A stretch of DNA of 59,597 bases, the filler included, from Basidiobolus ranarum (Eukaryota): assembly GCA_040143965.1 (NCBI GenBank). It is 11 parts of 11 records of this genome, joined end to end, with 100 filler letters (N's around TTAATTAATTAA, not from the genome) between each part and the next. Parts side by side here need not be neighbours in the genome. Positions count along the whole stretch, not along the records: positions 43,456 to 48,775 come from JASJQH010001634.1; 10 more parts are not named here. One strand, given 5' to 3'. A program made the translations under genes and the position numbers. This document shows positions 2,856-54,186 of this stretch, in pieces (the stretch's first letter is position 1; the number at the start of each line of letters is the position of its first letter). Below the pieces are notes generated by a model. The model was given only the letters and a program-made list of their open reading frames with translations, did not search any database and was not told the origin of the DNA.

Positions 2856-2889
<34 letters not shown>

Positions 2890-7964: not shown

Positions 7965-7973
7965 TTTATATTA

Positions 7974-16217: not shown

Positions 16218-16339
16218 NNNNNNNNNNNNNNNNNNNNNNNNNNNNNNNNNNNNNNNNNNNNTTAATTAATTAANNNNNNNNNNNNNNNNNNNNNNNNNNN
16301 NNNNNNNNNNNNNNNNNCCAATAACAGCCAAAGTAGCAA

Positions 16340-16610
16340 TTAAATATGGAAGATATTTGGTGATTTTTCGTTTGGGTTTAACATTTAATTCTGTCAATTA
16401 AGTCACTTTTACCAATTTTCACTATTTTCTCAAAATCTCTCCAAATCATCTCAAATTTTCACCCATGCTTAACAGGCATGTTTGTTATGATCAAACCAGG
16501 TCCAATAGTCCTATTTCATTGTAAACTATACATACGACATATTCAATTCAACAAAACTCAAGTGTTTATCTCACAAATCCAAAATTGGTCTAAACCACTT
16601 CCAAATCCTT
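16340..16610 (+). mobile_element. Copia family A LTR fragment
   Basis: TCACTTTTACCAATTTTCAC...CCAATAGTCCTATTTCAT...GACATATTCAATTCAA shared with 18350-18550 and 53460-53660. Confidence 0.75.
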
Positions 16611-16899
16611 TAATGACTTTTATCACTAACATGAGGCTCTGTTCAATGCTCTCATGGGTTTTTGCATTGTATTGCAAAACTAACACAACAAAACACAATC
16701 CACGGGCATAGAGTTGGTACCTATATGATTCAACTGTTTTGGTATTGTAATAAACTGACTGCATTTGTTTTATAAGCTGCAAAACAGATTTTATAATGAG
16801 ATTGGTTGTGATATTCAATATTGTTATCTAGCTATGTGGTAATATGTCACAAAAATGACCCTTCCACTTTTGTCTGGAGATTTGTTAATTACAAGTTGT

Positions 16900-17260
16900 G
16901 GATAAACAGGCTGAACTGTTTGTGGCGTTAGCAAAAATCCATGAGCTCATTCTGATTATCAATGGTAACAGCAGTTGATTATTTGCTGGTATCAGTTCTA
17001 TCCTAAATTTCAGATGTACAGCAGCTCTTCCATCATTAGTTTGCTAGCAAACCATATTGATTTTGTTGGATATTATTTGACCATGCCAGTGTATGCATGT
17101 GTAGAAACCAATACAACAAGATTATTGAATCATTTAATTTTCATTATGACTGGAAAATGGAGCCTGAAACAACATAATAATGGCATGTATATTGATTCAA
17201 ACTCCTATGTTAGTAAACACTTAATGAGGGCAATGTGTGATATTCAAGTCAAACTGTGAT
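16900..17260. repeat. Dispersed repeat family C (unclassified), internal part
   Basis: AAATTTCAGATGT...CATTAGTTTGCT...CATATTGAT...ACAACAAGATT shared with 27280-27410 and 38056-38185. Confidence 0.7.
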
Positions 17261-17279
17261 AAGTATTCACTCCATATTG

Positions 17280-18218
17280 TCATTCTTCTTGAGAGAATGT
17301 TTTGCTGATACTGTACTGCAGAGGGACATGGGCCATCTTTGCAGCAGTCTTAATACTTTTTGAACAATATCTGCAGATTTTAAGGTACTGACTTAAAGTA
17401 AGCATTTCCTTTGCATGATTTGGACAGATATGTTCTTCACTATTTACATTCTTGGAGTCAAAGGCAATTTGGGTATTCCAAATGTTCAAAATTCTGGTTA
17501 GCAGCTCTTCTTATGGCCTAGTGTGCCATATCTTCAGTGAGAATGCATTGGTGATTGAAATTCAGAATCTTTTAGGTAGGCAACTTTGCTAATTCAGCTA
17601 CCATGGATTGGAAGGCTCTTCACATCAACATTTCCAACTGATACCACATCATTTCTTGAGTAAGTTTTAACAAGTGGGCAAGATTGTGCTAAATCCTATA
17701 ACAAATGTCCATTCCTATGATTAACCTGAGTCTCATATGGTAGCTGGCTATTTCTAGTTCTGAATTAATGCAACTATTCTGGGATCCATGGCTATTCCCA
17801 AACTTGTGCAATAAATCCTAAAAGTTGATGTTTGTACTTGAAAAAATCACACTTGTTGGGTTTTCCAGACAGTTGGTTTGGTCCAATATTACTAAGACTT
17901 TCTTTACTTGTTGCATATTCTTATCCTGATTCTTACAATAGATCAGAATATCATCTAAGTAAAAGATTACAAAGTAGTCAAAGTACTTGGTAAAGTTGTT
18001 CCATATTTACTATTACTAGGATAGCTGGTGCATTTGTAAAACTGAAACTAGTAACATAATATTGATTGTGGTAATATGTTGACCTAAAGGCAGTCTAGAG
18101 GGTGTTTTCAGATCTCACTCAGATCTAGTTTTAGCCTGCCATAAGTTTAATTTTGCTAAATATTTTGGTTCAGTAAAGTTGATGTATCACAAGATCCATT
18201 TTGAGGATAGTATATTTG
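17280..18218 (-). pseudogene. Ty3/gypsy reverse transcriptase/RNase H remnant, interrupted by a nested copia insertion
   Basis: Minus strand KYFDYFVIFYLDDILIY (YLDD motif), FSFTNAPA, KTAF-like motif and FVIGFS..LAHL. The copia LTR starts at 18219 within the RT N-terminal region. Confidence 0.85.
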
Positions 18219-21207: not shown

Positions 21208-21651
21208 AGACTTGTTCCATTGGACCAGGTCCGATTGTGCCGCTCAATTCAGCCTGCTAGTATACCATCTGGGACAACCTGTCAATTACCATGGCTGGGT
21301 CCTACAACACTCAATCAGACACTATAAGGAACAATATGGCACTATCCCACCACAATTGGACACAATGATTTTATTGGAGATATTGTGCCAGCCTGTGCCA
21401 AGTTACCCAATTTAGTATTGCCAAATTACAATTTTGGTTAACTACAAAGTAAGTTCATCCGCTAGTTTGTAACTTACAAATTACTGAATGTGTAACAATA
21501 AGCAATTTATACTGTAACTTACCCAATCAAATGTATAACCAAGACATTCACATGTTTTTAGACCAATCATTTGTCCCTCACTAACACAGTATCCTGATTT
21601 ACAATTTGGTAAAACAGCTCCGGCATTACAAAACACCAGTAGTTTTGGCAC
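21208..21651. mobile_element. One end of a larger TIR DNA element related to the 182-bp MITE, inserted in copia RT
   Basis: Starts AGACTTGTTCCATTG (same terminus as the MITE) exactly where RT homology stops. Carries subterminal ATTGTGCC/GGCACTAT motifs; runs off the contig end. Confidence 0.65.
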
Positions 21652-27181: not shown

Positions 27182-27739
27182 TGGGGATATATTGGCTGAA
27201 TTCTTTACAGAAATTTGCCAAAATCCAAGCTTATTCTCATTGTGATTGATAACAAGAGTAAGCTCTTTGCCAAGTGTCAGTGCTATTCAAAATTTCAGAT
27301 GTTTAACAATTTTTCCACCATTAGTTTGCTGGTAAAGCATATTGATGTTGTTTGGTTATGTCTAATCAGTCTAGTATGTCCATATATAGAGACTAAACAC
27401 AACAAGATTCTTGTGTTTTTTGGTTGTCAATACTGCTGGAATATAAAGCCTAAAATATCTAAATAAAGGCATGCATATTATAGCAATAAAACCAGTAATT
27501 TGCCATTAAAAAATTATATTTTTGCAAAAGTTATCTGATATTGAATAATGTATGCCAAATTTGAGGATCACTATTTTAACTTGTATGAATACCATCAAAT
27601 TACCATCAAGAAACCGCTGTCACATCATCAAAATCCCTGGCAGAATGCAAGCCACCAATATTGTGATGGTTCTCTAACAGTTTTGCTCTTGCAGTGGGTG
27701 CATCTGATCCAGATCAAATTGATTTTATTTTTCTTAGGG
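27182..27739. repeat. Dispersed repeat family C with terminus ...GATCCAGATCAAATT.ATTTTATTTTT.TTAGGG
   Basis: Collinear with 38035-38524; both end at TTAGGG with different flanks. Here it interrupts copia RT right after LHGLKQ. Confidence 0.8.
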
Positions 27740-30120
27740 TATTGTTTTAATCCATGTAGTGTTTTTTGGAGTCTGCAAACTTCTCTAGGGCTTCTTGGGT
27801 CCATGTATCCATCTAGCAAGTCAATGTAGATTGCTCTTCATAGCCATCTGAGTTCATTCTGGGTGAACATATCTTATTTCAAGCTAAAGAATGGTAACCC
27901 AGAAGTAAAAATCTCTTACTGTACAATCAATTTGACCAATTTTTGGTCATAAATTTGAAATAAGGTTTGCATCTCAAGATCCGCAAATGTTTTACATCAG
28001 GTTTAACACCAAACCAAGCTTGATATAGTATACCATTGGACAGACTTTTAGCAAAATGCCTATTCTTCAGATATATAGCTGAAGCAACAGCTTCTGCCAG
28101 AAAATTATCAGATAAATTCAGTAGATTTATCATAGATCTTGCCATATCTATCATAGTCCCATTAGCTTGTTTGGCATCCTCATTTTAATTAGGTAAATAG
28201 GGGGCAGTAATTTCTTGCTTTATATCATGACTTTTATCAAAGAGGTTAACCAGTGTTGAATAATATTCTCCACAATTATCTTTATGTATTTTGTTGATTC
28301 TAGTTGCAGTTCCACTACTCACAGCTGTTTAAAAGCTCTAAGGATAGAGAGAGCTTCTTCTTTTCTTTCCATAATGTAGAACAAACTATCACTTGTATAA
28401 TCATCAATCATTGTGATCAAATATCTTTTTTCACCTAACAATACATATTGCAGTGGTTTACACAAATCTGAATGAATTTGATCCAAATTTATGATAGAGT
28501 AGCTTGAAACAGAGACCTTCAGTTGTTATCTTGCTTGCTTTCCATTTTTACAACTCATACAAATTTCTAGCTTGGTTGGAAGAGCAATGAAAGTTCCAAA
28601 AATTAGGCAACTTTTGCTCAATTTTATCAATTAACAAATCCAAAATGCAAAGTCTCTTATGCCATATTCAAATGGTTTCTGGATCGGAATAATTTCTATT
28701 TATACATAAACCTCTAAGATTATATGAAAGCATGTAAAAGTTCTGCTCCTTTTCTCCCAACACAAAATCATTCCCTTTTTGTTCAGCAATGTTTGATCCT
28801 GACTTATCAAAATTGAATATTAGCCTTTCTGAGAAGGCCTTGCATAAAGATATTAGGTTCTTGGCAATATCTGGAACATGTAGCACATCTTTAAAAGTAT
28901 ACTTTATCTCTTCAGAAGCATCTGTTAATCTTACTCATATTGTTCCCGTTCCAATAGCATCCAGTTTACAGTCATCTCCATGAGAACCTTTCTAATTTGG
29001 ATTGCTGCATAGTTCACAGACCAAAGCCTTTCATTTGTGATGTGTTGGGAGGCTCCAGAATCAGTACATCTTGTCTGAGAATCCTTTTGATAGTCACAGA
29101 TAGAGACAGATATGAAAAAGCAATCCTCTGTTCTTTTGGTGGGATCCTGATTTACATGAATCTTAGTCCAGACATGTACCAAATGTATAATTTGAAAGTG
29201 AATTTTTATTTCATGATTCTAGAGTCAATACTAGGATCTTAAGCTCTTAAGGTAGGGTATTCTGGACTGTAATTAAAAATTCCTGACCTGTAGTAGGAAT
29301 GCCAATGCACACCACTTAATCCTGAAAAATAGCGGCTCCATTGATGAGTGGCTCTATATTTTTTCCTGGCTTTATCTTAAAATTAAAGAATTGTCTTCCT
29401 AGAAACAGCTTGTTGGATGCAGAACATGTTTGATAGGGGTTTTCTACAACTTTCCTTACCTTCTGGCAGTTTTAGCTCTTGAACATTGAATTAGCAATTT
29501 GTCTTTAACATTAGTACAAGTTGTGTCAAAGACAGTTTGTTTGTTTTTAACCTGGAGTAAGACTTTAGTTTCAGGTAGTTTTCCATTATCTTTGCCTACA
29601 ACAATGTCCCAAAGACCTTTTTCTTGCAGCAGCTTTTTCAATTTAGTTCTCCAAACTTGATTGTTGGTGCTCTCAAACTTTTCAGAAGAGGGAAGAGTTC
29701 CAGAAATTCAACAAGTACACATTACAGATAGTCCAAATATGCAGCTCATAACCTGTTAAAGTTTTTGGGAGCCTGTTGCCACAGGTTTGGATAATTAGAG
29801 AAACTTGTTGTTTGCAGTTGTTGATTTATTGAGTAGAAAGTTGACATTTATAGTTTTCTCCAGATGAAGACAAACTAAAGTATAGAATATGTCAAGGAAG
29901 GTCCCAGGAATGTGTGTCCAGATTTTGTGGCTTCTAGTACAAGTGTGCAAAATTTATATACCTGAGAACTTCTAAGCTTGAAAAAATAATCCAACTAAGT
30001 TCAGAATGTAAATTGTGGGTAATAGCTTAGTGAAATATAAGAATCTTAATACTAACCTGTATATGAATATCAAGGTGATTAGACAAAGCTAATGGCAACA
30101 ATGGTTACTACAATATGGTC
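27740..30120 (-). mobile_element. Decayed Ty1/copia family B element: LTR (29754 onward), PBS (29744-29753), gag-protease-integrase, RT fragment
   Basis: Minus strand ...AACA-GGTTATGAGC. Motifs KGLWDIV, DSGASQHI, LHVPDIAKNLIS, IHSDLC, DMARSM...AEAVASAIYLKNR, VCRLQKTLHGLKQ. Confidence 0.88.
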
Positions 30121-30199
30121 AAGTGCATAGAGCTAACAGAATTGGGTTTGTGTTATCTAGCCTGAAGCAGATATCAATGTCAGCTTTACTCAGTTGGAA

Positions 30200-30700
30200 A
30201 CAAGGTGTTCCCAAAAAAGTGACAACCTTGCTATTTCAAGTTCCTATATTTCATGCTCTAGGGTGTTTTCCAGAGTGTGCAAACCTTTTTAGGATTTTAT
30301 GGGTGCACAAATCCATATGGCTGGTCTGTAAAGATCTCCTCAGTAAGCTCACCATTCAAGAAAGCAGTTTTAGCATCTATCTGCTATATAATATACTAAT
30401 ATTTAGCTGAAATTGCCATAGTCAATTGAATTGAATTAACCTTTGCTATTGGAGTAAAAGTTTGATATAATCTATTGCTGATGTTTGGGAAAAGCCTTTG
30501 GCTACTAGCTTAGCCTTTACCTTTCTATACTGACATAAGAGCTATATTTGAGCTTAAACAACTTTTATCAGCCAATTGAATTTCTATCTGCCTATTGGTC
30601 CGTTAAAATACATGTATGATTTTCAATCAAATCCTGGTACTCATTGATAAGGCAATCAGGCCTATTTCTGATCTAATTTGATCTCCTTGTTTGGGACAAA
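30200..30700 (-). pseudogene. Copia RT remnant
   Basis: Minus strand YRKVKAKLVAKGF, QFN.LWQF (QMDV-like) and CRPAIWI/LYG-like segments; CpG-depleted. Confidence 0.55.
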
Positions 30701-30842
30701 GGCACTGCAGCTTTGGGCATTTTATTGGGTACTTGAGTAGACAAAATCTCAGTCAAAGGGTCCACATATATGCTATTTTCTTAATTGTTTTGGTTTGAAT
30801 CCATATGAATGATTGGATCAGGACAAAATTGACTACAATATC

Positions 30843-31023
30843 AGAGTTGTGGCCTGTTATGGTGCCAGATTGTGGTATACATATCATATTATAGCAAGTA
30901 ATCTATATTTATGCAGCACAACTTGGCACTACCCAGCACCCTCTGGCATGGTCAATTTCAATAAGATGTACAGTAATATATTGACCCAAGGTCTGATAAA
31001 TCCTGTCACAATCAAACAAGCCC
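30843..31023. mobile_element. MITE copy 3 (older, more diverged; flanks ATC/ATT)
   Basis: Aligns end-to-end with 13251-13432 (GTGCCAGATTGTG...GCACAAC.TGGCACTA...CACCCTCTGGCATG...GGTCTGATAAATCCTG.CACAA); 181 bp. Confidence 0.75.
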
Positions 31024-32508
31024 ATTGTGTAGTAATCACAGATCTTGCAACTTCGATTAAAGTCATATGAGCTCTTTCAGCAACTCCATTCTGTTGAGAT
31101 AAATGGAGGGCAGTAGCTTCTTGCTTAATTCCATATATTTGCAAAGCAAATAAATGGTGTTGAAGAACTTTCTCCAACACTATCAAAATGTATTTTCTTA
31201 AATTTAATTGCAGTTTTAGTCCCTGCAAGAGTTTTGAAACCTCTCAAAATAGAGAGAGCTTCTTATGTTCCATAAAGTAGACCAAAGTGTCCCTCACATA
31301 ATAATCAACAGGTGTATTTAAATATCTTTTTCCACCTGTATGAATATTTTGCATAGGTACACACAAATATAAATCAATTGGTTGCAAATTTTGACTGAGT
31401 TGATAAAAATCAAACTCTTGAATGGTTGTCTGGCTTTTTTGTTATGTATGCAAACCTTGCAAACATACATTTTGGTTGTACAGGTTGATTTGAATTACAG
31501 AAATTAGGCTTTTTTTACACTCTTTTCTCAAGTAATTCAATCTACAATAGCTGAATCTCTTATGCTTTTATTGAGTAGTTTCCTGTTTGGAATCAGTCAT
31601 ATTTATACAAAAACTTCTTGGTTGTATATAGGTCAGTATTAGTGGTGATCCTTTTCTCTTGAAATAAATTATACACAATTTGGCCAGTGATGATGCTTCC
31701 TGACTTTTCAAAATTGAATTTTAGCCTTTCTGAGATGGCCTTGCATACAGCTATTTAGCTCATGGCAATATCACAAACATTCAGTGTATCCTTAAGGGTA
31801 TACACTTTCTCTTCAAAAAAACCAGTTAAATGAACTTGAATGGTTCTCATGTCAATGGCTTCCAAATATTGTTATTTCTCATGAAAACCTTTCTAATGGT
31901 GAATTCTCTGTAACTCACAAACCATTGTTTCTAATATATCAAATGCAATGAGGCTGTGCAGTTGTAGTCCCATGTCTAAGAGTCTGTACTGGTAGTCATA
32001 GGGAAAACAGATATGTACAAATACTTTTCTGTTACAACCACATGTCCAGATTCTATTTGTTTTTCTACTTTTGTAATGGTCGTGCTGTAATCTTTCTTAA
32101 ATGGATCCCTGTTGGGAGTTTTATATAGAGCAGATATGAACAAGTGATCTTCTATTGTAACCATATTTTCAGATCCACTAGATTTTTCTTCTGGTGCAAT
32201 TCTTTCAAGGCAATTTTGGCTCTCTTGGCCAGTTCATTTACATTAATCACAGAAAATACTACTTTTCTTCATGCAGAGTCTATAACCTTTATGGCAGCAT
32301 GATTTTGCTTAGCCCTGTAAAGCAGTTACTTGATTATAATGGTTGGATCCTGATTTGCATATAATTTCTTCCAGAATTTGGCCAAATGCTTAATGAAGGG
32401 TCAAATTTTCAGTTCTTGAATCTGGAGCCATTACTAGGTTCTGATATGTCAAGTTATTTTGGGAGTCTATTGGAAGTGTAGAAATTGATGGTTTTCACTT
32501 CTTGCTTT
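31024..32508 (-). pseudogene. Copia family B gag-protease-integrase remnant
   Basis: QQNGVAERAHMTLIEVARS; MVTIEDHLFISAL, shared with 49252 region; zinc-knuckle remnant. Confidence 0.82.
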
Positions 32509-39457: not shown

Positions 39458-40921
39458 TTAACCGCGACTAGAGAACATAACACCAGTACCTTCTAGGCAA
39501 GAAGCAATCTTACGAATGGCATTGGCAATTGCGGCTGTGCGGTAATCGATGTTACCAAATTCATTGGCGGTCACTCGAGTCTCTTCACAAGCCTTGATCA
39601 TGGTGTCCTCCAATCCGGAGTAAACCAACTCATGCTCCTCGGCACCATGAATCACTGTTTGACGTTCACCATCAGAGAGTTTACGGCCGGCTTGCTCCTC
39701 TACAAGAGCAAGGAGACGCTCTTTTCCTTGTTCTTCCCACTTTCTGTTCATGCGTCCAAAGCGAACATGGGACACATTCTTCAGCCACTCAAAGTAGGAT
39801 ACACATACACCACCAGCATTGGCAAGTAGATCCGGAACAACCACCACTCCCTTCTGCACAAGAATCTCATGAGCGGCAGGTGTAATGGGTCCATTGGCTC
39901 CCTCATTGATGATCTTGGCTTTGATGTTGTGCACATTCTTGAGTCCGATTTGACGCTCGAGTGCTGATGGCACCAGAATATCACATTCTACCTCCAACGC
40001 TTTTGTGGATCCGGCCACAACTTCACCGTCAGGGTACCCTTCGAGACTACCATGTTCCGCCTTGTACTCTCCGAGCTTCTCAATATCCAGACCATTCTGA
40101 TTGAGGACACTGAATCTGCTGTCAGCAACGGCAACAACCTTGGCGCCATTGGCGACAAAGAATTTGGCCGCATAGAAAGCAACATTGCCGAACCCTTGGA
40201 GTGAAACGGTCTTTCCTTCAATCTCACCTGTGAGGCCGGTGACCTTTTGAACATCCTCATATTTCAAGAACTCACGAGTGCTATAGTACACTCCGAGTCC
40301 AGTAGCCTCAGTACGACCACGGACTCCTCCTTGGTTGATGGGCTTGCCAGTGATACACCCGGCAGCATTGATATCGGTGGGGTTGAGTTGACGATATGTA
40401 TCCATCATCCAAGTCATCTCACGACCACCAGTGTTCACATCAGGAGCGGGAACGTCCACGCCAGGCCCGAGGAAGTTCTTTTGGCAAAGCTCAAGAGCGA
40501 AGCGACGTGTGATACGCTCCAACTCTCCAACAGTATACTTTCTGGGGTTGATGGCTACTCCTCCCTTGGCTCCACCGAAAGGTACATCAACCACAGCACA
40601 CTTGTATGTCATGAGGGAAGCCAAAGCCTCAACCTCCTGCATGTCAACATCCTCAGCATATCTGATACCTCCCTTCACTGGCAACTTGTGACGAGAGTGT
40701 TCAGCACGGTAGGCACGGACAATCTCGGTCTCGCCATCCTCGCGCTCAATGGGGAAGGTAACACTGAGGATAGCATCTACTCCTCTGATGGTGTTAACCA
40801 TTGACTTCTTGACTCCACTTGCTTTTGCGGCAATATCGAAGAATTCCTCAACACATTGAAGGAAGTTAGGCTCGTGAGCTTCGCAAGCAGCGTTTTCGTT
40901 TCCGTGGTATTTTGTAGACAT
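39458..40921 (-). CDS. GDH: NAD(P)-dependent glutamate dehydrogenase, GLUD1-type, 487 aa, intronless
   Basis: HSRHKLPVKGGIRY, MTYKCAVVDVPFGGAKGG, DVPAPD, GRTEATG, QGFGNV, EGANGP, PDLLANAGGVCVSYFEWLKN. Confidence 0.97.
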   Translation of the reverse strand: MSTKYHGNENAACEAHEPNFLQCVEEFFDIAAKASGVKKSMVNTIRGVDAILSVTFPIEREDGETEIVRAYRAEHSRHKLPVKGGIRYAEDVDMQEVEALASLMTYKCAVVDVPFGGAKGGVAINPRKYTVGELERITRRFALELCQKNFLGPGVDVPAPDVNTGGREMTWMMDTYRQLNPTDINAAGCITGKPINQGGVRGRTEATGLGVYYSTREFLKYEDVQKVTGLTGEIEGKTVSLQGFGNVAFYAAKFFVANGAKVVAVADSRFSVLNQNGLDIEKLGEYKAEHGSLEGYPDGEVVAGSTKALEVECDILVPSALERQIGLKNVHNIKAKIINEGANGPITPAAHEILVQKGVVVVPDLLANAGGVCVSYFEWLKNVSHVRFGRMNRKWEEQGKERLLALVEEQAGRKLSDGERQTVIHGAEEHELVYSGLEDTMIKACEETRVTANEFGNIDYRTAAIANAIRKIASCLEGTGVMFSSRG

Positions 40922-43355: not shown

Positions 43356-43554
43356 NNNNNNNNNNNNNNNNNNNNNNNNNNNNNNNNNNNNNNNNNNNNT
43401 TAATTAATTAANNNNNNNNNNNNNNNNNNNNNNNNNNNNNNNNNNNNNNNNNNNNATTTTTTGCATTATTAACTTCTAAAAATCGTAAATGTAGATAGAA
43501 TGAACAAGCTAAATTGGTAATAAATAAATTATTATTTGTGGAAATCAAATTATC

Positions 43555-44367
43555 ATGGACGTATCACACTTTGGTAACTCTGCCTCACAGTTTTCTCTCA
43601 AAGATGAACTGGCATTAAGAATAAATATTTCTGACGTTGATTGCATTAAAGATATTATAGGAATAACCGACGATGTCATAGATGATACTTCGTTTGAAAA
43701 ATTTTACTTACCTGGGTTTAACAAAGGAGAAATTATGACATTTGTCCCAACCAAACACCCAGAACTATTTAGTAGCCAAAAAAAATTTTTAAATAAACTT
43801 CGCATTGTCATGGTAAATAACGATATAACTAGTGTTGGCATAAATTTCGAAAAATATATAGACGAATTCGTATCTTTCCTATATAGCGAAATGGAATTTG
43901 ACGATGGAGAAGAACTTACTATGCAACCATGTCATCTCAGAATGGAAATTGGAGAAACAACGTTCGCCGCCTATGCCGACCGAGAAGGCAGACGCGGAAC
44001 CGAAATCGTATGGATCTTGAACGAAGACAAACACAGAGGATCTACAAGATATAAAAAGGGAGAGGTCCAAATGGTAGCGTGTATGATTGCTGCCATGCAA
44101 TGGAATTATAGCATATCAGAAGATGCATGCCCTAAAAAAATTATAGGTATTCGAGTTATTGGTGATAAATTTTGCTTTTATTCTGCAAATGTGTCAACAT
44201 CGTACTTAGAGGATCTTCGAAAAGGTCTCCCTAAAAGAAATCTTACTGTAAAAAAATATCCATCGGGTGATGGGTTGGAAATATCAAGTGAATCTGACCG
44301 CAAGAAAATATTGGAGTGTTTATATCTACTTAAGAAGTATGCAATAACAATTGTTCCCGTTTATTAA
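43555..44367 (+). CDS. Putative PD-(D/E)xK restriction-endonuclease-fold protein, 270 aa
   Basis: A.AD...(W)ILNEDK...GEVQMVACMIAAMQ.N...IIGIRVIG..FCFY...YL..L..G.P...GL....DR..IL.CL. This pattern resembles a fungal/giant-virus REase-like family (Crinkler-type effector domain). Confidence 0.6.
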   Translation: MDVSHFGNSASQFSLKDELALRINISDVDCIKDIIGITDDVIDDTSFEKFYLPGFNKGEIMTFVPTKHPELFSSQKKFLNKLRIVMVNNDITSVGINFEKYIDEFVSFLYSEMEFDDGEELTMQPCHLRMEIGETTFAAYADREGRRGTEIVWILNEDKHRGSTRYKKGEVQMVACMIAAMQWNYSISEDACPKKIIGIRVIGDKFCFYSANVSTSYLEDLRKGLPKRNLTVKKYPSGDGLEISSESDRKKILECLYLLKKYAITIVPVY

Positions 44368-44399
44368 TATTATAAACATCGTAAACACAAACAATCACA

Positions 44400-44800
44400 T
44401 CTAATCTAGCTAATTCGAATTCTAAAACTCCTGGAAATATTTTTTTAAAACTTTTTTTATTCCAAAAGTTAAAATCAAGTTAAATTTTAGTTATCACAAT
44501 TGGGTTGTTTCACATTTAATAGTTTAAGTTTCCAAACCATCTGAAAAAACTTTTTTATCAAAAGTTAAAGTTGTGCCATCACCTTAACCATAATTGTTGA
44601 AACTAGGTTATGTCCCATTTAATAAATTAAAATTCCCAAATTCTTGGAGAAAGCTTTTTGCTAAAAAAAATATTTCCAGGAGTTAAATTCCAAGTTTACA
44701 TCATAGTTATTGTGATTGGGTTGACTCATATTTCAGATTTTAATTTTCCGATTTTTTTTACTCATGATATTATTTTCTGTCACAAAATAATTTAAAAATT
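44400..44800. repeat. AT-rich degenerate repeat array including a perfect 21-bp inverted repeat (44426-44446 / 44664-44684)
   Basis: AACTCCTGGAAATATTTTTTT / AAAAAAATATTTCCAGGAGTT; recurring AAAACTTTTTT...AAAAGTTAAA...AGTTAT..CAAT modules. Confidence 0.75.
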
Positions 44801-45024
44801 TTGGTTTTCTATACGTTACACATTTTATAAACTAATATAAGATTAAAAATTTTAATTTTCTGGACAAACCAATCTAAAATCAAAATTTTTTACGGATTGG
44901 CTTTTTAAAAGATGTTAATTTTTGGCTTGTTATATATAATAAATATATTATTTTAAAAGTGTCGTAATTATCAAATAAATATTTAAATGATGTAAATGCT
45001 TGTAATTTTAGTTACTTAATTATT

Positions 45025-45663
45025 TTAATACACAAGAAGTGTTATGCCAATAATAAATATTAAATTATAAAAATTAATAAATTTAGAATTGGCCATTGAA
45101 ATTTGTGGAGGATTTTTATTTGGGGTAGGAGTTGAATTAGTTTCATAAATGTGAGTGGGGGTAGCAATAAATGTAGTAACAGAACCATTAAGTGATGTTG
45201 GGGTATTATTAACTCCTGCATCAGGGGACAAATTTACCTCTATATATCCAATGGAATACCCGGTATTATTAGAATTTATAACAATAAGATTAACTGATAT
45301 TTTTAGTTGGGTGCACCGATTACATATATTAATCGATGATATGCCAGACCCCCTTAGATTATTTGCTATTGTCAGTACATTTGTTAGATGGATAAACTGC
45401 TTGGTTGAACATTCATATTTTGCAAAAGCAAAGGCTGTTTTACCAGACATTGCCTTTAATAAATTTTCCTTGCAATAACCAGTTGAAAAATCCCACGTAA
45501 TCGTAATTGGGCTATTAGGATTTACCAAAATGTCTTTCTGGGGATAAGATACACATGTAGATAAATCCATATATGTATCAACCATTCTGGATACAGTACA
45601 CGTTTGCCCAAAAATGGTTTGAATTAGACAAAAAGCAAACATAATTAAGATACAGTTTTTCAT
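45025..45663 (-). CDS. Secreted/membrane-anchored Cys-containing glycoprotein, 212 aa
   Basis: N-terminal signal peptide (MKNCILIMFAFCLIQTIFG), Cys-containing ectodomain, Thr/Pro/Asn stalk, C-terminal hydrophobic tail (FYNLIFIIGITLLVY); intronless. Confidence 0.75.
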   Translation of the reverse strand: MKNCILIMFAFCLIQTIFGQTCTVSRMVDTYMDLSTCVSYPQKDILVNPNSPITITWDFSTGYCKENLLKAMSGKTAFAFAKYECSTKQFIHLTNVLTIANNLRGSGISSINICNRCTQLKISVNLIVINSNNTGYSIGYIEVNLSPDAGVNNTPTSLNGSVTTFIATPTHIYETNSTPTPNKNPPQISMANSKFINFYNLIFIIGITLLVY

Positions 45664-45719
45664 TGTTATACTATATATTGTATTTTTATAATAAATATAT
45701 TACAAAGTTTGATTCAACA

Positions 45720-46700
45720 AAATTTTTTTCCAGATAAAATTAATTTGGTTTGGAGACTTTTGGTAATAATTTAGAGTATTAAATTTTTGTTCATGATGAT
45801 AATAATTAAGGTGAACAAAATTTAATTAGAAAACTTTTTCAGGTTAACGACTTTTAGGTTTATTCAAACCATTTTAAAATTATTTTGTTAATTTGGTTTC
45901 AAGAAGTAAAACTTTAAGTTAACATAGATACTATCATAATTAATAATTTAAAATTCCCAAACCCTCCGAGAAACTTTTTTTAATAATCTGGTTCCCAGAA
46001 GTTAAATTTTAAGTTGACATATAGTTATCGCAATTATATTAACCCATAATTAATATTTCAAGTTTCAAACTCTCCAAATCCAAACTCTTTTAAAATTATT
46101 TTGTTAATTTGGTTTCCAAGAGGTTAAATGCCAATACCTAGTTATTGTAGTTACATTATGTTTAATAATATTTAATACGTTTCTAATAAAATATTTTTTA
46201 AAATTTTATTTCCAAAAAGTTTAAATGTTGTTATTAATAGTTATCACAACTAGTAGTTAGATAAGATTTTGGATGCATTTCGACAAAAATATTTTTTAAA
46301 ATTTTATTTCCCAAAAGTTTAAACGTTGATACCGTTAATTATTGGAACAATGGTTTGGATAATAAAGTTTTAATATGTTCCGAGAAAAATCTTTTTTTAA
46401 ATTTGTACCGAATTTAATTTTATTCCAAGAGGGTTAAACTATTGTTAACCTGATTATTGCAACTAAATTGTGCCACATTTTATTTTTAAGTTTCCCAAAC
46501 TCTCAAAAAAGTTTTTTTAATTATTTTTTTTCTAAAATTTAAATCAAATGCCAAACCCAATCGGAAATATAATTGTTGAAAATAAGTTACGTTTTGTTTC
46601 AAAATTTCAGCGTTAATTTGTAAATATATTATAATTAAGACGTTTTAAAAAATTTATTTTACCAAAAAGTTAATTCTGAATGTCAACATATAGTATATTA
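45720..46700. repeat. Intergenic array of degenerate ~95-110-bp AT-rich units
   Basis: Recurring TTTTAAAATT(A)TT..TT...TTCC(A)AG/AAAGTT(T)AAA...AGTTAT..CAA module. TTTTAAAATTATTTTGTTAATTTGGTTTC is exact at ~45872 and ~46088; AAAATATTTTTTAAAATTTTATTTCC is exact at ~46188 and ~46286. Confidence 0.8.
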
Positions 46701-46735
46701 TAATTTATTGCTGTTACTATTAAATGTTATTAATA

Positions 46736-47692
46736 TTAGGCTTTGTTCATCATCACGTTTTCATCTTTGACATCAAAAAATATTCTAAACAACTCACTCA
46801 AATTTTGGACTTGTCCATCCATTCCTACTACCAATCTAGGATTGGGTGCTTCCCCAACTAACATTTGTCCATAACCCCAAGGCTTGAATCTGGATAAACC
46901 AAATAATATTACCTATAGAATAATTAAAGTTCCAGTAAAAAAAGTTATTATATTTATAATTGGAGAAAACCAACCCAAAATTTTGTATTCTTCTGCAACT
47001 TTATAAATTACCGGTGCAATTTTCACAAAACCATCTTCTGGGTTAAATCTTGGGGATGAATATGGATAAAATTTACCGGAAAAAGGATTGCTATATGATT
47101 TAACTGACATTGTATTTATATTATATAATTTTACTCCGTTAATTAACTTTGTTTCTTCTTCGTTAAAATTAACGATAGAAATTGATGAATTACTGTAACT
47201 ACCATATTCTGGCCAACTACAAAAATTTCTATTGTCGTTTGTATCAAAAGGGGTTACATAATAACTCGATGGATACAAATTACTTATATGTATATATCCA
47301 AATGGAAACAAGTTTAATTCTCCTTTTAAACCAGGAAGAATAACGTTTGTAGTATTTAAAACAAACAAAGTATAGCCAGAGCTAAATGGTTTGGTTGTGC
47401 CATTTAAATTGTTACAGTATATTGTAGAAGGATTTAGTTGCGTAAAATCTGTTTCTTTTTTTACGTGATTATATGTAACAAAAGAGACCTCTATTTTCCT
47501 GTTGGAAAAGGTGTCAGTGTTTAATTGTATAACAATTCCCGGGGCGGGTGATGAAAAAGGATTTTTGTTTTCCATTCTTGTAATTAAAACTGGTTGATTA
47601 AGAACAGAATTTATGCAATCATAAGCATAATACCCAAATAAAGATCCAAATGCCAATATAAATATCAACTTCAAACAGTTAGTTTTAGCCAT
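46736..47692 (-). pseudogene. Two-TM channel-like protein (PAC/TMEM206-DEG/ENaC-like architecture), 318 codons with one in-frame TAG at 46913-46915
   Basis: TM1 followed by PVL.....PAPGIVI; large loop; TM2. The frame continues 58 aa past the TAG as VILFGLSRFKPWGYGQ...VQNLSELFRIFFDV to TAA at 46736. Confidence 0.65.
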
Positions 47693-47788
47693 ATTAATTC
47701 TATATTAGATCAACAAAATGCATAAAAAGTTATACGCACCCATTCTCATTTCACGGTTTTGATAATTTAAATTTTTAAAAAAGAGGTA

Positions 47789-48421
47789 TTATTTTGTCAT
47801 ATAATCAGATATGTAAGTAACAAACATTATTAGGCTTGATGTTACACTAAATACATTTAAATTATATGTATTACCATTGTTTGATAGAATATTAATATTA
47901 TTTTTGTTTACTGTAATTACCTGGGATAAACTTAAGGTACCGGTTGGTTTATTAGCTAAACTTGACTTACTAGATAATGTGGAATTTGTTGAACTCGTCA
48001 AAGGGCTTTCATCAACAGAAAAAGTGTTTTGTGGGATCCCAAGAAATCTTGACGTTTTTATGTTACCATTTTCATATTGCTGAATGACAAATTTTGGGTC
48101 TTTGCTGCATTTAGATTTGCACTGTTTTGCCAAGTCTAATATTATTATTAAAGTGGGATTTATGTTGACATCAAACTTGAACTCGCGGATAATATTTCTT
48201 GTATTGTTATATTTATCATCAATGCAATCTGTTTTAACTATACTAATATTTGTGGCTTAATTAAAATTTTTTTGTAAATTATCTGTATTTATTTCAAGAC
48301 TGATTGCATCATTTGACTTTTTTGCATCAATTGTTTCAGTTGGACAGCTTAGATTTTCCACGTCGTTGGTTAAACATATTTGTATAAATGCCCACAGGAT
48401 AATAAGTTTTTTCCAAATCAT
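47789..48421 (-). pseudogene. Secreted/membrane-anchored glycoprotein, 210 codons with one in-frame TAA at 48257-48259
   Basis: ATG 48421 MIWKKLIILWAFIQICLT (signal peptide) is in frame with listed ORF 47789-48133. Cys ectodomain, Ser/Thr stalk and hydrophobic C-terminus match the layout and size of 45025-45663. Confidence 0.7.
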
Positions 48422-48496
48422 AATTATATTTTTGTGTATATATAGATTTCAAATGTATGACACGTAGCTAATTTATTTTTATCGTACAAAGTTATA

Positions 48497-48775
48497 ATGG
48501 GTAGTTGTTTTTCAGGGCTTAATAAGGAAAAAATTTATGAAGATAAAAGAAATGGAAATGTTTCTGGGGCAGTAAACGCAATTGTTGTAGTTGTTACAGG
48601 AAGGGGTAAATCTAGTGTTGCCAATGCATTAGTCCAGCGATCCATAGTTTCTGATAAACAAAATTATTTCCCGATTGGGGCTCGTCGGGTACGAGTAACA
48701 GAAAAGGCTCCTAGCGGGGCAGGATCTGGGTGGAAGGTGGTGGATACTGTAGGTGCATCTGATGGGTATGGAGAT
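48497..48775 (+). CDS. AIG1/TRAFAC-class GTPase-like protein with N-terminal MGSCFS lipidation motif; truncated at contig end
   Basis: G1-like IVVVVTGRGKSSVANAL (first Gly replaced by Val), G2-like RVT, G3 VVDTVG. Confidence 0.72.
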
Positions 48776-48875: not shown

Positions 48876-49720
48876 TAAATGATTTCCATTTGTTCTGTGA
48901 TGGTGCAGTCTGTCTTATCAAAATTGAATTTTAGACCTTCTGAGGTGGCCTTGCATACAGATATTAAGTTCTTGGCAATATCTGGATCATCTAATATATC
49001 CATAAAAGTATACATTTTTTCTTCAGAAACTCCAGTGAAATTGACTTGAATTGTTCCCACTCCAGTAGCATCCAATATGTGGTCATCTCCCATGAAAACC
49101 TTTCTAATTGGGATTTCTTTATAATCCACAAACCAATGTTTTTCATTTGGGAAACATTGGGAGGCTCCAGAATCAATATACCACATCTGAAAATCCTTGT
49201 TGGTAATCATAGATAGAGCAGATTTGAACAAGTGATCTTCTGTTGTAACCACATTTCCAAATTCAGCATGTTTTTCTTCTTGTGCAATTTTTTTGAAGCA
49301 ATCTTTGCTTAAATGGCCAGTTCTTTAACAGTAATACCAGAATGTGTTACTTTTCTTCTTTAAGTGCTTTTGACCTTGATAGGAAGGTTTCCCATAGCCA
49401 ATTACAGCATTTTCTTCATTCTTTTTGCTGTATATTGATTTTCATAAATCTTCATCCAGAGGTCTGCCAAATACATAATCTAAGGTCTAATTTTCAGTTG
49501 TTGATTCTAGGGCTATTAATAGGCTCTGAAACTTTTGTGGCAGGCTATTTAGGACTGTGTCTATGATATCATGATCAATAGTAGGTACTCCAATTCATTC
49601 CATTTTATCCATAAAATAGTGACACTATTAATTGGTGATTTAATATACTCTCCTGGTTCATGTTTAAGTTGAAGATTTTTCTTCTTAGAAACATCTTGTT
49701 GGCAGCAGAAGTTGTTTGAG
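48876..49720 (-). pseudogene. Copia family B gag-protease remnant
   Basis: WYIDSGASQ...VFMGDDHILDATGVGTI...PDIAKNLISV. Confidence 0.88.
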
Positions 49721-49769
49721 AGGTGTCAAATAAAACTAAATTGAATCTATATGAAGACTATATACTTTG

Positions 49770-50710
49770 ATAACATCACAGGCAGCTGTTTTCAAGCTCT
49801 GGAGACATCAAATTTGCTCCAAGTTTTGCCCTAATTCATTCTGATATATGTGGGCTTTTAAAATGTTTCAATAGGTGGCAAAAGGTACTTTATGACCTTG
49901 GTTGATGACAAAACAAGGTATACTTAGGTATTCTCTCTCAAATCAAAACATGTGGCCATAAGTTTGTTTAAGCATTACAAAGCAATGACAGAGAAAGAAT
50001 TGGCACAAAAATAAGTCTACTTTGTAGTGATATTGGTGGAGTATTTTGCTCAAAGAACATAGCAAGCTTTTGCTATAAGCTTAGAATTAAGCATTGAACC
50101 TCTGTATCTAAAGCTTCTAAAAAAAGTGGAGTTGCAGAACATGTTATATAGAATCATAGTGGAGATGGAAACAGCAATGTTGCATGTTCAGAAGCTAGAC
50201 TGCCAATATTGGGCTGAATCTGCGTCCATTGCAGTCTATAGCAAAAACCAGTGCCCCACATGTTTTGTACAAAATTCTACTTCATATGAAGTCCAATATT
50301 AATCAAAACCAGATGTGGATCTCACAAACTTTGGTTGCTCAATATATTTCCTAATTTCAGCTTAAAATGCTCTTAATAGGAAGCCAAAAGCAGTAAATGT
50401 ATTTTTCTTGGTTACTATGATGGATGTAAACCCTGCAGACTGTTTGCTATCAAAACTCAAAAGTCAAGTACATGTAAGGATGTAACACTTGATGAAAAAA
50501 CAAACTTTGCCCTCAAGTCACAGATCTTAAACCAGATAGCACAATCCAAACAATTTGGGAAGTGTCTCACCAAAATCTAGCTTTATATGATTGCAATTCA
50601 ATCAAGAATATAGCCTAATTACATCAAAAAATATGCTGAATCTGGCAGGTCATCTAGAGGTAAAATATGCCAGGGATATGGTGGAACACTTCCAACAATG
50701 ATATGCATAC
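49770..50710 (+). pseudogene. Copia family A integrase remnant
   Basis: LIHSDICG, LVDDKTRY, SGVAE, YWAESASIAVY; collinear with 19980-20970. Confidence 0.85.
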
Positions 50711-50739
50711 ATGCATTAGATACTCAAGTTTTACTGAAT

Positions 50740-53330
50740 TAAATATGTGTTATTAATAGTTTACTATGGAACAAGAGTGTTAGTTGTGCTTGGATCATAA
50801 TGAACATGCCAGTTGAGCATGGGTAAAATTTGAGGTGATTTGAAGAAGTTTTGGGAAAATGTTGAAAATTGGTAAAAGTATCTAATTAATACTTCTATCA
50901 ATTAGAGCATAAACTCATTTTTTTGAGTGGCAGAATTGAGTGCTAGATAATCAGAATATGAGTGAGCTAACTACTCAATAATGATTTGCTATTTACCTAA
51001 TTTCAACATTCCTACTCAACCACTTATTTTGTATTTCTCTTAAACCTTACACATATCTTGATAGTTCAAATTGTACTCTTGCTTTGGGTGGAGTTAAAAT
51101 GTCAGCAATCATTTCTTGAGTTGGGGACTAAACAAGTTCAATTAGATCATTCTGTGTTTTTTCTGTAACAAAATGATGCCTAATATTTACATGTGTAGTC
51201 CTAGCCTGAAATGTAGGGTTTTTAGACAATACAATGCAACTTTGATTGTCTTCAAATACATCATTAGCACATTTTGCATTTATCTCAAGTATGTGAATAG
51301 CTCTCTTAACCACATAGCTTCCTGTAAAGTAACAGAGGCAGTCATATAATCTGTTTCAATGGTGGAAAGTGCTACAGTTGGTTGCTTCTTACTATTCCAT
51401 GTTATGGCACCTTTACCATAGAGAAAAGTGTGCCCAGTAGTTCATCTTCTATCATCAAGGTTTCTTCCCCAGTCTGCATTACTGTTGCCTTCAAAAATAC
51501 CTATGTCAGGAGTGCCAAAATATTCCAGAACTAGATTTACAGTGCCTCCGAAACACCTGAATATTTGTTTTACTGCAGTTTTGTGCTCAGATTGTGAAGA
51601 TTTGAGATATTGGCTTACAGTTCCTACTACTGCAACAATGTCAAAATGTATTCCAGCCACTGTTTACAATACACCCCTCCAATCATTGATTGATAAGGGA
51701 ATGCATGGCTTTGATTTCTGTCATTTTGGGCTAATTCACAAGAAAATCTTGGTAATTTCACATTGATTTAAATTGCCATTGATACAGGCTTGCTATTTTG
51801 CTTGTTGAAGCATTTTAAAATGCCTTGGATGTGCCTAGAGTGATTTAGCATGACTTTCTGATTAGGTTTATCTCTCTTGACTTTGATTGCCAGGATATAA
51901 CTGAATTTTTTCATATCAGTCATCTGAAATGGTTTTGATAAGCTGCTTTTTGTTTAAATTAAATGCTTCTTGATCATATGTGGCTACAATTAAGTCATCC
52001 ACATATAGTGCAAAGATTGGGATCCTATTTCTTGTTGCTTTGAATTAAATACTGTGTTATGCTGCACAGTTTTGAAATTCCAGCAATTCCAAATAAGTAG
52101 CTATCTTGTTACATCATGCCCTAAGTGCTTGCTTGAGTCTATATAGCAATTCTTGCAGCTTACAGATCATAACAGGGTGTCTTAGGTAAATAAATCCATC
52201 TAGTTGCTCAATACAGAACACCTCTCCTTGATATCCATTCAGAAAGGCTGTTTTACATCCATTTGATGTACACAAAGGTTATGGATGGCTGAAAGTGCCA
52301 ATATTGATCTTATGGAACAAAATTTAGTTACTGGAGCAAATGCTTATCAAAATCAACTCCAGGAGGCTTGAAATAACCTTTTGCAAATAGTATTGCTCTG
52401 TACCTTTCTATGGTTCCCTCAGCTTGGCTTTTGACTTTGACAACACATTTGCAACTGATTGGCTCTCTTCCTGATGGTAGAGGACTTAAAACCCATGATT
52501 ATTGTCCTGAAGTGCACAAAACTCACCAGATATTGCTCTTTCCCATGATTTTGATTCTTAAAATTCCTCCTTCTGCATGAAGTTCTAGGTCCAGAATCAT
52601 CCTCTGATGTAATTGAAGCCAGAATATGGGCTGCATTGGGCTCAGATACAGCTAGATTCTGGGCAGACACTTCCTGAATTGTGCTAAACGTGTTATCTGG
52701 TTTAGGAACTGCAACTTTAGGGGAAAGTTTGTTTTTTCATCAAATATCATATCTCTACACTTACTTAACTTGCTATTTTTGGTATCAACCAGTCTGTAGG
52801 CCTTAGATCCATCATGTTAACCTCAATATATGAATTTTCTGCTTACAGATTCCAATTACAGGCACTTTTAAACTGGAATTTGGCAATATGCTGAGCAACA
52901 AACAATACTGAGATGATCTACACTTGATTTTGATCCATATATGGCTTTGATTGGGGTTGAAAATGGTAGCAAGCTTGTTAAGCTTCCATTTTTGATATAC
53001 ACTGTAGTTGAGACAGATTCAGCCCAATATTGGTAATCTAACTTTTGATCATATAAGCTTGATTGTGCCATCTCCACTATGGTTCTATTGGCAAATTCTG
53101 CAAAGCCATTTTGCTGTGTAGTTTAAGTTATGGTGACTTGTTCCTAATTCTTTATTTAGAATAAAAACTAGCAAAGTCTTTAATGCAGCATTCTTCAGCA
53201 ATATCACTCCTAGCTAACATTACTATGAGTGCTAATTTTTTTATGCCATTGCTTTGTAGTGCTCAAATACAGCTAAGGCTTCAGAATTTGCTTAGAGAAA
53301 GAAAACCCAAGTAAATCAAGTTTTGTCTAC
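50740..53330 (-). mobile_element. Copia family A 3' portion: integrase-RT-RNase H remnant, PPT and 3' LTR (50740-51008)
   Basis: Minus strand EMAQSSL, ALYVDDLIVA, SNADWG...DDRR, EDNQSCI...RTTHVNIRHHFV; then GAGTAGGAA + TGTTGAAA. Confidence 0.9.
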
Positions 53331-53334
53331 AATA

Positions 53335-54186
53335 TATTGAAATTAAGCAAATAGCAACTTAGTATTTAGTAGCTACTATATTCATATTCTGCTTATTTAG
53401 CACTCAAATCTGTCAATGAAAAACATGTGTTATTATTCTAATTGATAGATATATCATTTAGTTCACTTTTATCAATTTTCACTATTTTCCCAAACTTCTC
53501 CAAATCATCTCAAATTTTCACCAATGCTTAACAGGCATTTTTGTTAAGATCTAAGCATGTACAATAGTCCTATCTCTAAGTATACTATAAATAGGACATA
53601 ATCAATTCAATACAACTTAAGTGCTTAATTCACAAATCCATATCTTGTCCAAAACACTTCCAAGTCCCCTAAACACTTTTATCACATTGTGAGCCACAAG
53701 ATAGCTATTAATGAAATGTCTACCAGTACTATTACCACATTTTGGCATCCACAGAAAAGTTAGATGGTGATGACTTTCACCTTGGGAAGTTCAAGAGGCA
53801 AATGGTGCTGGTGGAGAAGGACCTTTGGGGATTTTTTTACAGCAGAAGAAATAGAGTCAAAGGGACCACCAGAAGTTATCCTTGCCATTCATAAGAAGCA
53901 GAGGAAAGCACTCTCTACACTTTGTCCATATCTTAGAGACTCTCAATTAAGACACATACAATTGGCAAAAATGTCCAAAATGCTTGGGAAACAATTGAGG
54001 GACTATATGAGACAAAGGTTTTGCTAATAGTCTATTTCTTAGGAAGAAACTATGCTCAATTCAGATGAATTCTGATGATTATATGCTTAATCATAAAAAT
54101 CCAATAAAAACTATGGAAGCGCAGCTCCCCTCCATTGGAGCGCCTAGTAATGAAGATGCCGTTGTCATGACACTACTTGGGAGCCG
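53335..54186 (+). mobile_element. Copia family A 5' LTR, degenerate PBS and gag remnant
   Basis: Collinear with 18219-19070; ...ACTTTTATCA then CATTGTGAGCC; KKQRKALSTLC. Confidence 0.88.

Follow-up and report, generated by a model that had tools for sequence, protein, structure and literature searches.

An AT-rich contig with five open reading frames

We analysed a stretch of 59,597 bases from the genome assembly of the fungus Basidiobolus ranarum (the window), which consists of 11 contigs of 5,311–5,341 nt each, joined by N44-TTAATTAATTAA-N44 linkers. The subject of this work is one of these contigs, at 43456-48775. It carries five uninterrupted open reading frames (ORFs), g1 (+), g2 (-), g3 (-), g4 (-) and g5 (+), and arrays of degenerate repeats in the two long spacers between them (Table 1). 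Only g1, which encodes a nuclease-fold protein, has relatives outside Basidiobolus, and the neighbourhoods in which these relatives are found bear on whether the contig derives from a giant virus (Nucleocytoviricota).

The GC content of the contig is 28.5% (coding 32.5%, non-coding 21.8%), compared with 34.3–40.7% in the other 10 contigs of the window. At third codon positions (GC3), its five ORFs range from 0.21 to 0.29 and the four long host ORFs of the window from 0.38 to 0.48 (Mann-Whitney p = 0.016). GC and GC3 together mark a compositional break from the host genes of the kind expected for giant-virus-derived DNA. The ratio of observed to expected CpG dinucleotides (CpG o/e) is 0.80, with 0.72 in coding and 1.00 in non-coding DNA; elsewhere in the window it is 0.03–0.15 in six contigs and 0.59–0.76 in the four contigs with ordinary genes. 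A first-pass annotation, made by a model from the sequence, had described the contig as far more AT-rich than the host-gene contigs and as keeping its CpGs, unlike the transposon contigs, and both descriptions agree with these figures. It had also described TATATA-rich leaders, for which we found no enrichment: TATATA occurs 10 times in the contig against about 11 copies predicted from base composition (an estimate), half of them inside coding DNA, and just two sites lie directly upstream of genes, jointly serving g2, g4 and g5. Neither a tRNA gene nor an Rfam match was detected in the contig.

Spacers of 657 nt (g1–g2), 1,072 nt (g2–g3), 96 nt (g3–g4) and 75 nt (g4–g5) separate the ORFs, the last two being the very short spacers that had been pointed out earlier. 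The genes had further been called intronless; the ORFs are indeed uninterrupted, but this does not distinguish them, since the host ORFs are uninterrupted too. An exact-sequence look-up of four host ORFs found two of them deposited as proteins without interruption (487 and 301 aa); the other two run off their contigs, and no entry was found for them.

The intergenic arrays of degenerate ~100-bp repeats named in the annotation were recovered as two blocks both by a repeat search and by an iterated nhmmer profile. The repeat search returned 17 families of degenerate direct repeats spaced 95–131 nt apart, and in the main families the copies are 60–75% identical to the reference copy. Matches to the nhmmer profile fell at 44394-44712 and 45845-46544 only, all on the + strand, and no copy of the family was found with it in the other 10 contigs of the window or in the six metagenome loci described below. 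Tandem Repeats Finder did not report the repeats, as expected from how degenerate the copies are. Inside block A lies a perfect 21-nt inverted pair (44426-44446 and 44664-44684, 217 nt apart), which makes the left edge of the block an inverted partial unit and gives the block an outline like that of a miniature inverted-repeat transposable element (MITE).

Two adjacent genes, g3 and g4, each carry exactly one premature stop, in line with the annotation. A hydrophobic span of g3 (residues 241–270) straddles its TAG, and the 57-codon tail beyond the stop has a GC content of 35.7%, like coding DNA, as opposed to 21–22% in intergenic DNA. An intron over this stop was ruled out from the sequence: there is a single GT nearby, it comes after the TAG, and the GT...AG stretch downstream of the stop spans ~23 nt. 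In g4, the TAA is followed by 155 open codons that hold no ATG until near their end; the chance of such a run, calculated from base composition, is 2e-6. A reassigned code in which TAA or TAG specifies an amino acid was also ruled out: the TAA of g1 stands exactly where its homologs end, and that of g2 comes right after the hydrophobic tail.

The protein encoded by g2 has a signal-like segment at its N-terminus and a hydrophobic segment at its C-terminus, both above the hydropathy threshold. The proposal that g2 and g4 are two surface glycoproteins draws on features of the sequence only: these segments of g2 and the N-x-S/T sites of both proteins (four in g4). No 19-residue window of g4 exceeds the hydropathy threshold, and its N-terminus is hydrophobic by eye only. 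No paralogy between g2 and g4 is detectable (E 0.17). The hydrophobic features of g3 comprise an N-terminal helix and one C-terminal membrane span, the single clear span above the threshold; together with a single-sequence model that is unusable at a pLDDT of 33.7, and with no Pfam family and no homolog in the searches reported below, this leaves the suggested channel-like nature of g3 unsupported.

The last gene, g5, starts with MGSCFSG, a myristoylation/palmitoylation-type N-terminus shared in the form MG(S/N)CFSG with its relative in B. ranarum, K7432_017497 (P0025), whose UniRef name is AIG1-type G domain protein. The AIG1 model scores 11.4 bits on the g5 fragment and 21.2 bits on full-length P0025, with a curated cut-off of 27. 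The start would fit the lipidated GTPase of the annotation, the lipidation being a prediction. The P-loop reads VVTGRGKS compared with GVTGRGKS in the relative, so its first Gly is replaced by Val, as already noticed, and the Walker A motif GxxxxGK[ST] is not intact. To judge from the motif, this change should weaken nucleotide binding and may have cost the protein its function.

Table 1. Positions (in the window) and properties of the features of contig 43456-48775
Feature	Coordinates	Strand	Description
Whole contig	43456..48775	.	5,320 nt, complete, linker-bounded; composition unlike the other 10 contigs of the window
g1	43555..44367	+	Intact, 270 aa, restriction-endonuclease-like (PD-(D/E)xK) fold
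Repeat block A	44394..44753	+	~3 degenerate head-to-tail units, start-to-start 103–113 nt
g2	45025..45663	-	212 aa, predicted secreted or anchored; 8 Cys, 5 N-x-S/T sites
Repeat block B	45845..46680	+	~7–8 degenerate units, same family as block A, spaced 95–131 nt, GC ~21%
g3	46736..47692	-	Membrane-protein gene; a single in-frame TAG, at 46913-46915, interrupts the C-terminal membrane span
g4	47789..48421	-	Ser/Thr-rich protein, hydrophobic N-terminus; in-frame TAA at 48257-48259 (codon 55)
Divergent spacer g4/g5	48422..48496	.	75 nt, one TATATATA within
g5	48497..48775	+	AIG1/MMR_HSR1-type GTPase, first 93 codons only; the gene runs off the contig

The g1 nuclease family and its giant-virus neighbourhoods

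We modelled the g1 protein with AF2 from a 12-sequence alignment (pLDDT 85.4, pTM 0.87). In an exhaustive structural comparison, the top matches were the mitoribosomal chains 7a5f_s3 and 3j7y_5 (Z 13.9, 206–214 residues aligned), which we take to be mL37/mS30-type proteins with a restriction-endonuclease-like fold. Next came the nuclease domains of DrdV (Z 9.1) and BpuSI (Z 8.7) and a fragment of HsdR (Z 6.9), with many more proteins of restriction-endonuclease fold below them, and Foldseek matched MGME1, RecE, Cas4 and phage PD-(D/E)XK proteins. Three residues, D142, E157 and K159, are invariant in all 12 aligned family members; D142 lies within strand 135–148 (strand 2) of the model and E157-x-K159 at the end of strand 150–158 (strand 3). 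The protein thus shares with the PD-(D/E)xK nucleases, such as type IIG/IIL and type I restriction enzymes, both the alpha/beta core and the catalytic motif on strands 2 and 3, but unlike restriction enzymes it is a stand-alone protein of 270 aa with no partner methylase or helicase. Model, structural matches and the conserved D...ExK concur with the nuclease fold proposed in the annotation. Since the metal-binding residues are kept, the protein probably still cuts nucleic acid, a putative activity predicted from the model. It was assigned to no Pfam, PADLOC or PHROG family; Pfam searches with all 12 family members gave scattered single chance matches only, and a PDB sequence search with the family profile returned nothing below E 0.24.

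A protein search with g1 yielded 12 matches. The closest is a partial protein of B. ranarum that is 98% identical; all four differences fall within residues 1–50 (43555-43704) and none in the next 154, so the nuclease core appears constrained. The matches also include unnamed JGI and Logan proteins at 38–59% identity and a protein of Racocetra persica (Glomeromycota), which is 60% identical over half its length and is the closest named relative outside B. ranarum. A tblastn search with g1 against phage records gave no match.

Scanning metagenome contigs for homologs of g1 returned six loci, two of them only 1.3–1.4 kb long and four longer than 12 kb, the latter on contigs of 16–35 kb. On all four long loci, the g1 homolog (37–41% identity over ~260 aa) stands among typical Nucleocytoviricota genes. 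L002 encodes a ResIII helicase, a Hint protein, a HET protein, an ATP-dependent DNA ligase and Rpb2 domains 6–7; L003 encodes Rpb1 and a dUTPase, again with a Hint-module protein; L004 carries MutS domains I, II, III and V as well as a distant second g1 paralog; and L005 combines DUF5757, a DEAD helicase, an mRNA capping enzyme, Rpb5 and Rpb1. ORFs of at least 90 aa cover 58–91% of these loci, where CpG o/e is 0.76–0.93. The Rpb1 of L003 is not a housekeeping polymerase, because its best match to cellular Pol II reaches only E 2e-42 over 822 aa.

AATTGA is the core of the mimivirus early promoter, whose motif, AAAATTGA, is reported upstream of ~45% of mimivirus genes (PMC5294985). We found AATTGA within 80 nt upstream of 7 of 14 ORFs on L002, 8 of 15 on L003, 3 of 12 on L004 and 1 of 7 on L005, with 0.02–0.05 expected per ORF; by this count it is enriched on three of the four long loci, more weakly on L004, and hardly on L005. 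Gene content and motif together indicate that mimivirus-like giant viruses carry genes of the g1 family, and one of these viruses also encodes a HET domain. L002–L005 share with mimivirus-type viruses (Imitervirales) the AATTGA motif, MutS, split or divergent RNA polymerase subunits and the capping enzyme, none of which they share with contig 43456-48775; this placement in an order relies on promoter motif and gene content only.

In a tree of the g1 family, sequences from giant-virus contexts occur on both sides of the deepest split. The g1 of the window groups with P0002, P0003, P0004 and the R. persica protein, and this clade is nested among sequences from giant-virus contexts. The tree has 19 rows (the window g1, 11 database proteins, six locus-derived homologs and the L004 paralog) representing 18 different sequences; P0001, P0010, P0013–P0022 and P0024 were left out as duplicates, fragments or near-identical cluster members.

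Several further observations concern the long loci themselves. The HET (heterokaryon incompatibility) domain protein of L002 lies at 6781-8226 (+; E 8e-14). HET domains are mainly fungal, and its presence hints at a fungal host for these viruses. The Hint-module proteins of L002 (3403-4638, +) and L003 (3901-5151, +) are 58% identical over 170 aa. In both L005 (7893-9812) and L003 (13119-15584), the Rpb1 ORF ends just inside domain 5, and no second half of the gene turned up in the examined parts of either locus; in L005 the g1 homolog (9848-10828) starts 35 nt past the Rpb1 ORF. The Rpb1 gene may thus be split in these loci, and a nuclease beside the break recalls, by analogy, free-standing homing endonucleases. 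L002, with a GC content of 34%, has several GC-rich intergenic stretches, upstream of the ORFs at 9998, 11107, 13089 and 18247, which contrast with the AT-rich, AATTGA-bearing promoters of their neighbours and may be inserted mobile elements.

Origin of the contig

Taking these results together, we tentatively regard contig 43456-48775 as a decaying remnant of a giant virus, or as an island seeded by such a virus; this is the best single reading, although we would put its chances at somewhat less than even. The layout, the compositional contrast, the g1 fold, the giant-virus neighbourhood of the g1 relatives and the gene breaks were seen directly; a viral origin of the whole contig and its integration into the host genome are inferred. 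Gong, Zhang and Han (2020, PMC7017919) described endogenous DNA polymerase fossils of giant viruses ('fundsalphaviruses') from two members of the genus, B. meristosporus and B. heterosporus. The remnant reading alone accounts jointly for the compositional break, the undepleted CpG of the repeats, the viral contexts of the g1 relatives, the early decay and the fossils in the genus. A CpG o/e of 1.00 in the repeats, compared with 0.03–0.15 in the transposon contigs, fits either a recent arrival or an unmethylated state, and the single stops in g3 and g4 and the Gly-to-Val change in g5 fit early decay. The course of events would have been that a giant-virus genome entered the fungal lineage and that the contig is a decaying piece of it or of a virus-seeded island. 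The region would have no collective function left. Its g1 would persist intact, be it as a selfish gene or as a conflict gene that became domesticated; with one stop each, g3 and g4 would be pseudogenes, dead or dying genes for membrane or secreted proteins; g5 would probably be impaired through its Walker A change; and short MITE-like repeats of ~100 bp would have spread through the two long spacers. That the gene set served as a host-interaction module, as the annotation put it, is speculation.

A number of results weigh against a viral origin. A Pfam scan of all five ORFs, including read-through forms, gave nothing above the curated cut-offs and thus no giant-virus hallmark gene (major capsid, PolB, A32 ATPase, D5 primase-helicase, VLTF3, viral RNA polymerase or capping enzyme); the annotation, too, had listed no capsid, polymerase or packaging gene. 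As the contig measures only 5.3 kb, such genes may lie nearby. AATTGA precedes none of the five genes (there is one copy per strand, both inside coding sequence), and AAATTGA is not enriched in the window, with 33 found and 30.6 expected. A tblastn search with g2 to g5 against the six metagenome loci gave no match, so that g1 is the one gene of five with any viral link. IMG/VR returned no confirmed relative when searched with the g1 alignment, and none for g2, g3 or P0025, nor for the MutS of L004, in a single-protein mode that finds close relatives only. For g2, one match among 1.8 billion representatives led to two hypothetical proteins of B. ranarum at 30–34% identity, the second from the same cluster as the first; for g3, a word-indexed search of 5.8 billion proteins found no homolog; and for g5, the only database relative is P0025 (292 aa, 82% identity), whose nearest Atlas structure clusters are cellular AIG1/MMR_HSR1 GTPases, mostly of fungi and also of other eukaryotes.

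The g1 family itself adds to these objections. Its nearest Atlas clusters are 93–100% eukaryotic, mostly from Mucoromycota or Basidiomycota: one of 329 members (93% Eukaryota, mostly Mucoromycota; TM 0.88) and two of 144 and 61 members from Basidiomycota. Among the structural neighbours are Mucoromycota clusters in which 17% of members have a Crinkler domain and 42% a kinase domain, and Rhizophagus Crinkler proteins with restriction-endonuclease-type domains have been discussed (PMC6131194, PMC5289972). The closest sequence relatives of g1 (51–61% identity) sit on short contigs with no readable context. Eukaryotic clusters and short-contig relatives together suggest that the family may be fungal and borrowed by viruses of fungi. 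The tree holds no more than 18 different sequences and has its root on one very long branch; because of this root, and because the contexts of most of its sequences are unknown, it lends weak support to a viral origin of the family. The endogenous giant-virus element proposed in the annotation is supported in part, by the viral contexts of all four long g1-homolog loci, the compositional contrast and the published Basidiobolus fossils, and not by hallmark genes, AATTGA or the relatives of g2 and g5, which are known from B. ranarum only.

The close rival to a viral remnant, which we consider possible but rather unlikely, is a native, fast-evolving and AT-rich accessory region holding lineage-specific surface or secreted proteins and conflict-type genes, in which the g1 family is fungal and was picked up by giant viruses. 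If so, the presence of g1 says nothing about the origin of the contig. The overwhelmingly eukaryotic Atlas clusters and the Crinkler and kinase neighbours of g1 in Mucoromycota argue for it, as do the confinement of g2 relatives and the g5 sequence homolog to B. ranarum, the fungal and other eukaryotic AIG1 look-alikes of P0025, the IMG/VR search that found no relative of g1, the lack of a viral promoter motif on the contig and the uninterrupted host ORFs of the window. It sits poorly, however, with a GC3 that is lower in all five genes than in any of the four host ORFs, with repeats that are not CpG-depleted, unlike repeated DNA elsewhere in the assembly, and with the giant-virus-like surroundings of every long g1-homolog context (four of four), found on both sides of the deepest split of the tree. 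We think it distinctly unlikely that the contig stems from an extrachromosomal or exogenous element that was sequenced along with the fungus, be it a persistent Basidiobolus giant virus or a cytoplasmic linear virus-like plasmid. Linear virus-like plasmids are AT-rich and intronless, and the AT-rich compact layout of the contig, its divergent gene pair with a 75-nt spacer and its non-coding CpG o/e of 1.00 would fit DNA that nuclear methylation has not seen. Such plasmids were recently described from other Zoopagomycota and from Mucoromycota, where their 7–37 times higher coverage gave them away (PMC13348850), and for zoosporic fungi persistent giant viruses have been published (PMC13533422). 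What speaks against it are the in-frame stops in two of five genes and the fact that neither a DNA polymerase nor a terminal repeat nor a plasmid housekeeping gene was found on the contig, one end of which lies inside a gene; no plasmid-type Pfam domain was seen among the five ORFs and no terminal inverted repeat among 23 inverted pairs, although plasmid termini are not open to judgement because of that end inside a gene. Basidiobolus, moreover, is not mentioned in PMC13348850.

Contamination by an AT-rich eukaryote in the sequenced material appears very unlikely to us. Such an origin would agree with a composition unlike that of the host contigs, and the relatives of the genes in B. ranarum lie on small contigs of 1.3–3.4 kb; the relatives of g1, g2 and g5 there could stem from the very assembly that gave the window, and we therefore did not count them as an independent strain or take them as independent proof that the genes are fungal. 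On the other side, g2 matches B. ranarum only and g3 matches nothing, so that neither points to any other sequenced organism; the closest named relative of g1 is fungal (Racocetra persica), leaving aside unnamed metagenome and Logan entries; and Pfam found no housekeeping gene of another organism among the five ORFs.

Compared with known systems, the viral remnant that we favour would have both precedents and peculiarities. Our literature search on Basidiobolus and giant viruses or nucleocytoplasmic large DNA viruses (NCLDV) found only PMC7017919 relevant. As described there, the Basidiobolus fossils share with the contig the host genus, giant-virus-related DNA in a fungal assembly and signs of decay, but they are defined by a DNA polymerase B near Pithovirus, and the contig has no polymerase or other hallmark. 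The viral contigs with g1 homologs, for their part, carry a mimivirus-type motif and MutS. In Rhizophagus irregularis, a 1.5-Mb giant endogenous viral element related to Asfarviridae has been reported, with a GC content of 36.6% compared with 28% in the host; its genes include PolB, RNA polymerase, capping enzyme and VLTF3, and its integration is documented by reads and Hi-C (Zhao et al. 2023, PMC10640383). By that account, both the element and our contig deviate from the GC content of the host and combine low coding density, pseudogenes and repeats expanded in non-coding DNA; the element, however, is GC-richer than its host and has marker genes, whereas the contig is AT-richer, has no marker and is only presumed to be integrated.

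Pithoviruses have intergenic spaces filled with arrays of AT-rich non-coding repeats. The repeats of the contig also form AT-rich arrays between genes, a likeness by analogy alone; they differ in their shorter units of ~100 nt, in being direct and very degenerate and in including only one 21-nt inverted pair. The separate Rpb1, Rpb2, Rpb5, MutS and ligase genes on the 16–35 kb contigs of the g1 relatives set these contigs apart from zymocin-like linear plasmids, which have none of them. As far as PMC13348850 describes them, zymocin-like plasmids resemble the contig as small, compact DNA of early-diverging terrestrial fungi that often encodes secreted proteins, but their defining genes (DNA polymerase, chitinase and housekeeping genes) are absent from it. 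Literature searches on GC content or AT-rich regions in Basidiobolus gave nothing useful, and PMC9894930 and PMC5751038 contained nothing bearing on the contig.

Endogenous giant-virus DNA in fungi, Basidiobolus included, is already established (PMC7017919; PMC10640383). What sets the contig apart is that the evidence points to a mimivirus-like source rather than a pithovirus- or asfarvirus-like one, and this evidence comes from the contigs of the relatives, not from the contig itself. If the contig is viral, a mimivirus-like source would be added to the pithovirus-like fossils of Basidiobolus; if it is a native island, the result would be an ordinary one, namely orphan surface proteins and conflict-type genes in a region that evolves fast. 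In either case, g1 represents an uncharacterised nuclease family common to fungal genomes and giant-virus contigs from soil, which could serve as a probe for viruses of fungi in metagenomes and as a tracer of gene flow between virus and host. To our knowledge, terrestrial fungi have no described exogenous giant virus, and published fungal giant viruses infect zoosporic fungi, according to PMC13533422. Possibly the most important outcome is therefore the lead that the g1 family and L002–L005 provide toward giant viruses of terrestrial fungi. In its strongest form, which we hold to be unlikely, this lead would mean that g1 nucleases are the mark of a lineage of mimivirus-like giant viruses that infect, recently or now, terrestrial fungi (Basidiobolus and Glomeromycota), and that the contig is a fresh scrap or an episomal copy of one; L002–L005 would in that case be genome fragments, the first on record, of exogenous giant viruses of non-zoosporic fungi.

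Other contigs of the window

The contig next to 43456-48775 carries an intronless gene for a glutamate dehydrogenase of 487 aa at 39461-40921 (-), which is deposited letter for letter in NCBI. Its protein is 89–90% identical to two glutamate dehydrogenases in a cluster, formed at 90% identity or more, of proteins from B. meristosporus CBS 931.73 and B. ranarum. Six paralogs from B. meristosporus belong to this cluster, with five encoded on a single 75.7-kb scaffold, along with several partial copies from B. ranarum, so glutamate dehydrogenase is strongly multi-copy in Basidiobolus. We had considered the gene as a yardstick of host divergence and dropped it because of its multiple copies.

The six nearly CpG-free contigs of the window (o/e 0.03–0.15) lie at 1-5341, 5442-10781, 10882-16217, 16318-21651, 27182-32508 and 48876-54186. 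In the same six contigs, GpC is normal or raised (1.13–1.35). Remnants of copia type were recognised in at least two of them, as a gag at 18658-19137 and as a Pol beta-barrel domain at 48878-49324, and the loss of CpG in the six contigs fits a heavy, methylation-driven C-to-T decay of Basidiobolus transposons.

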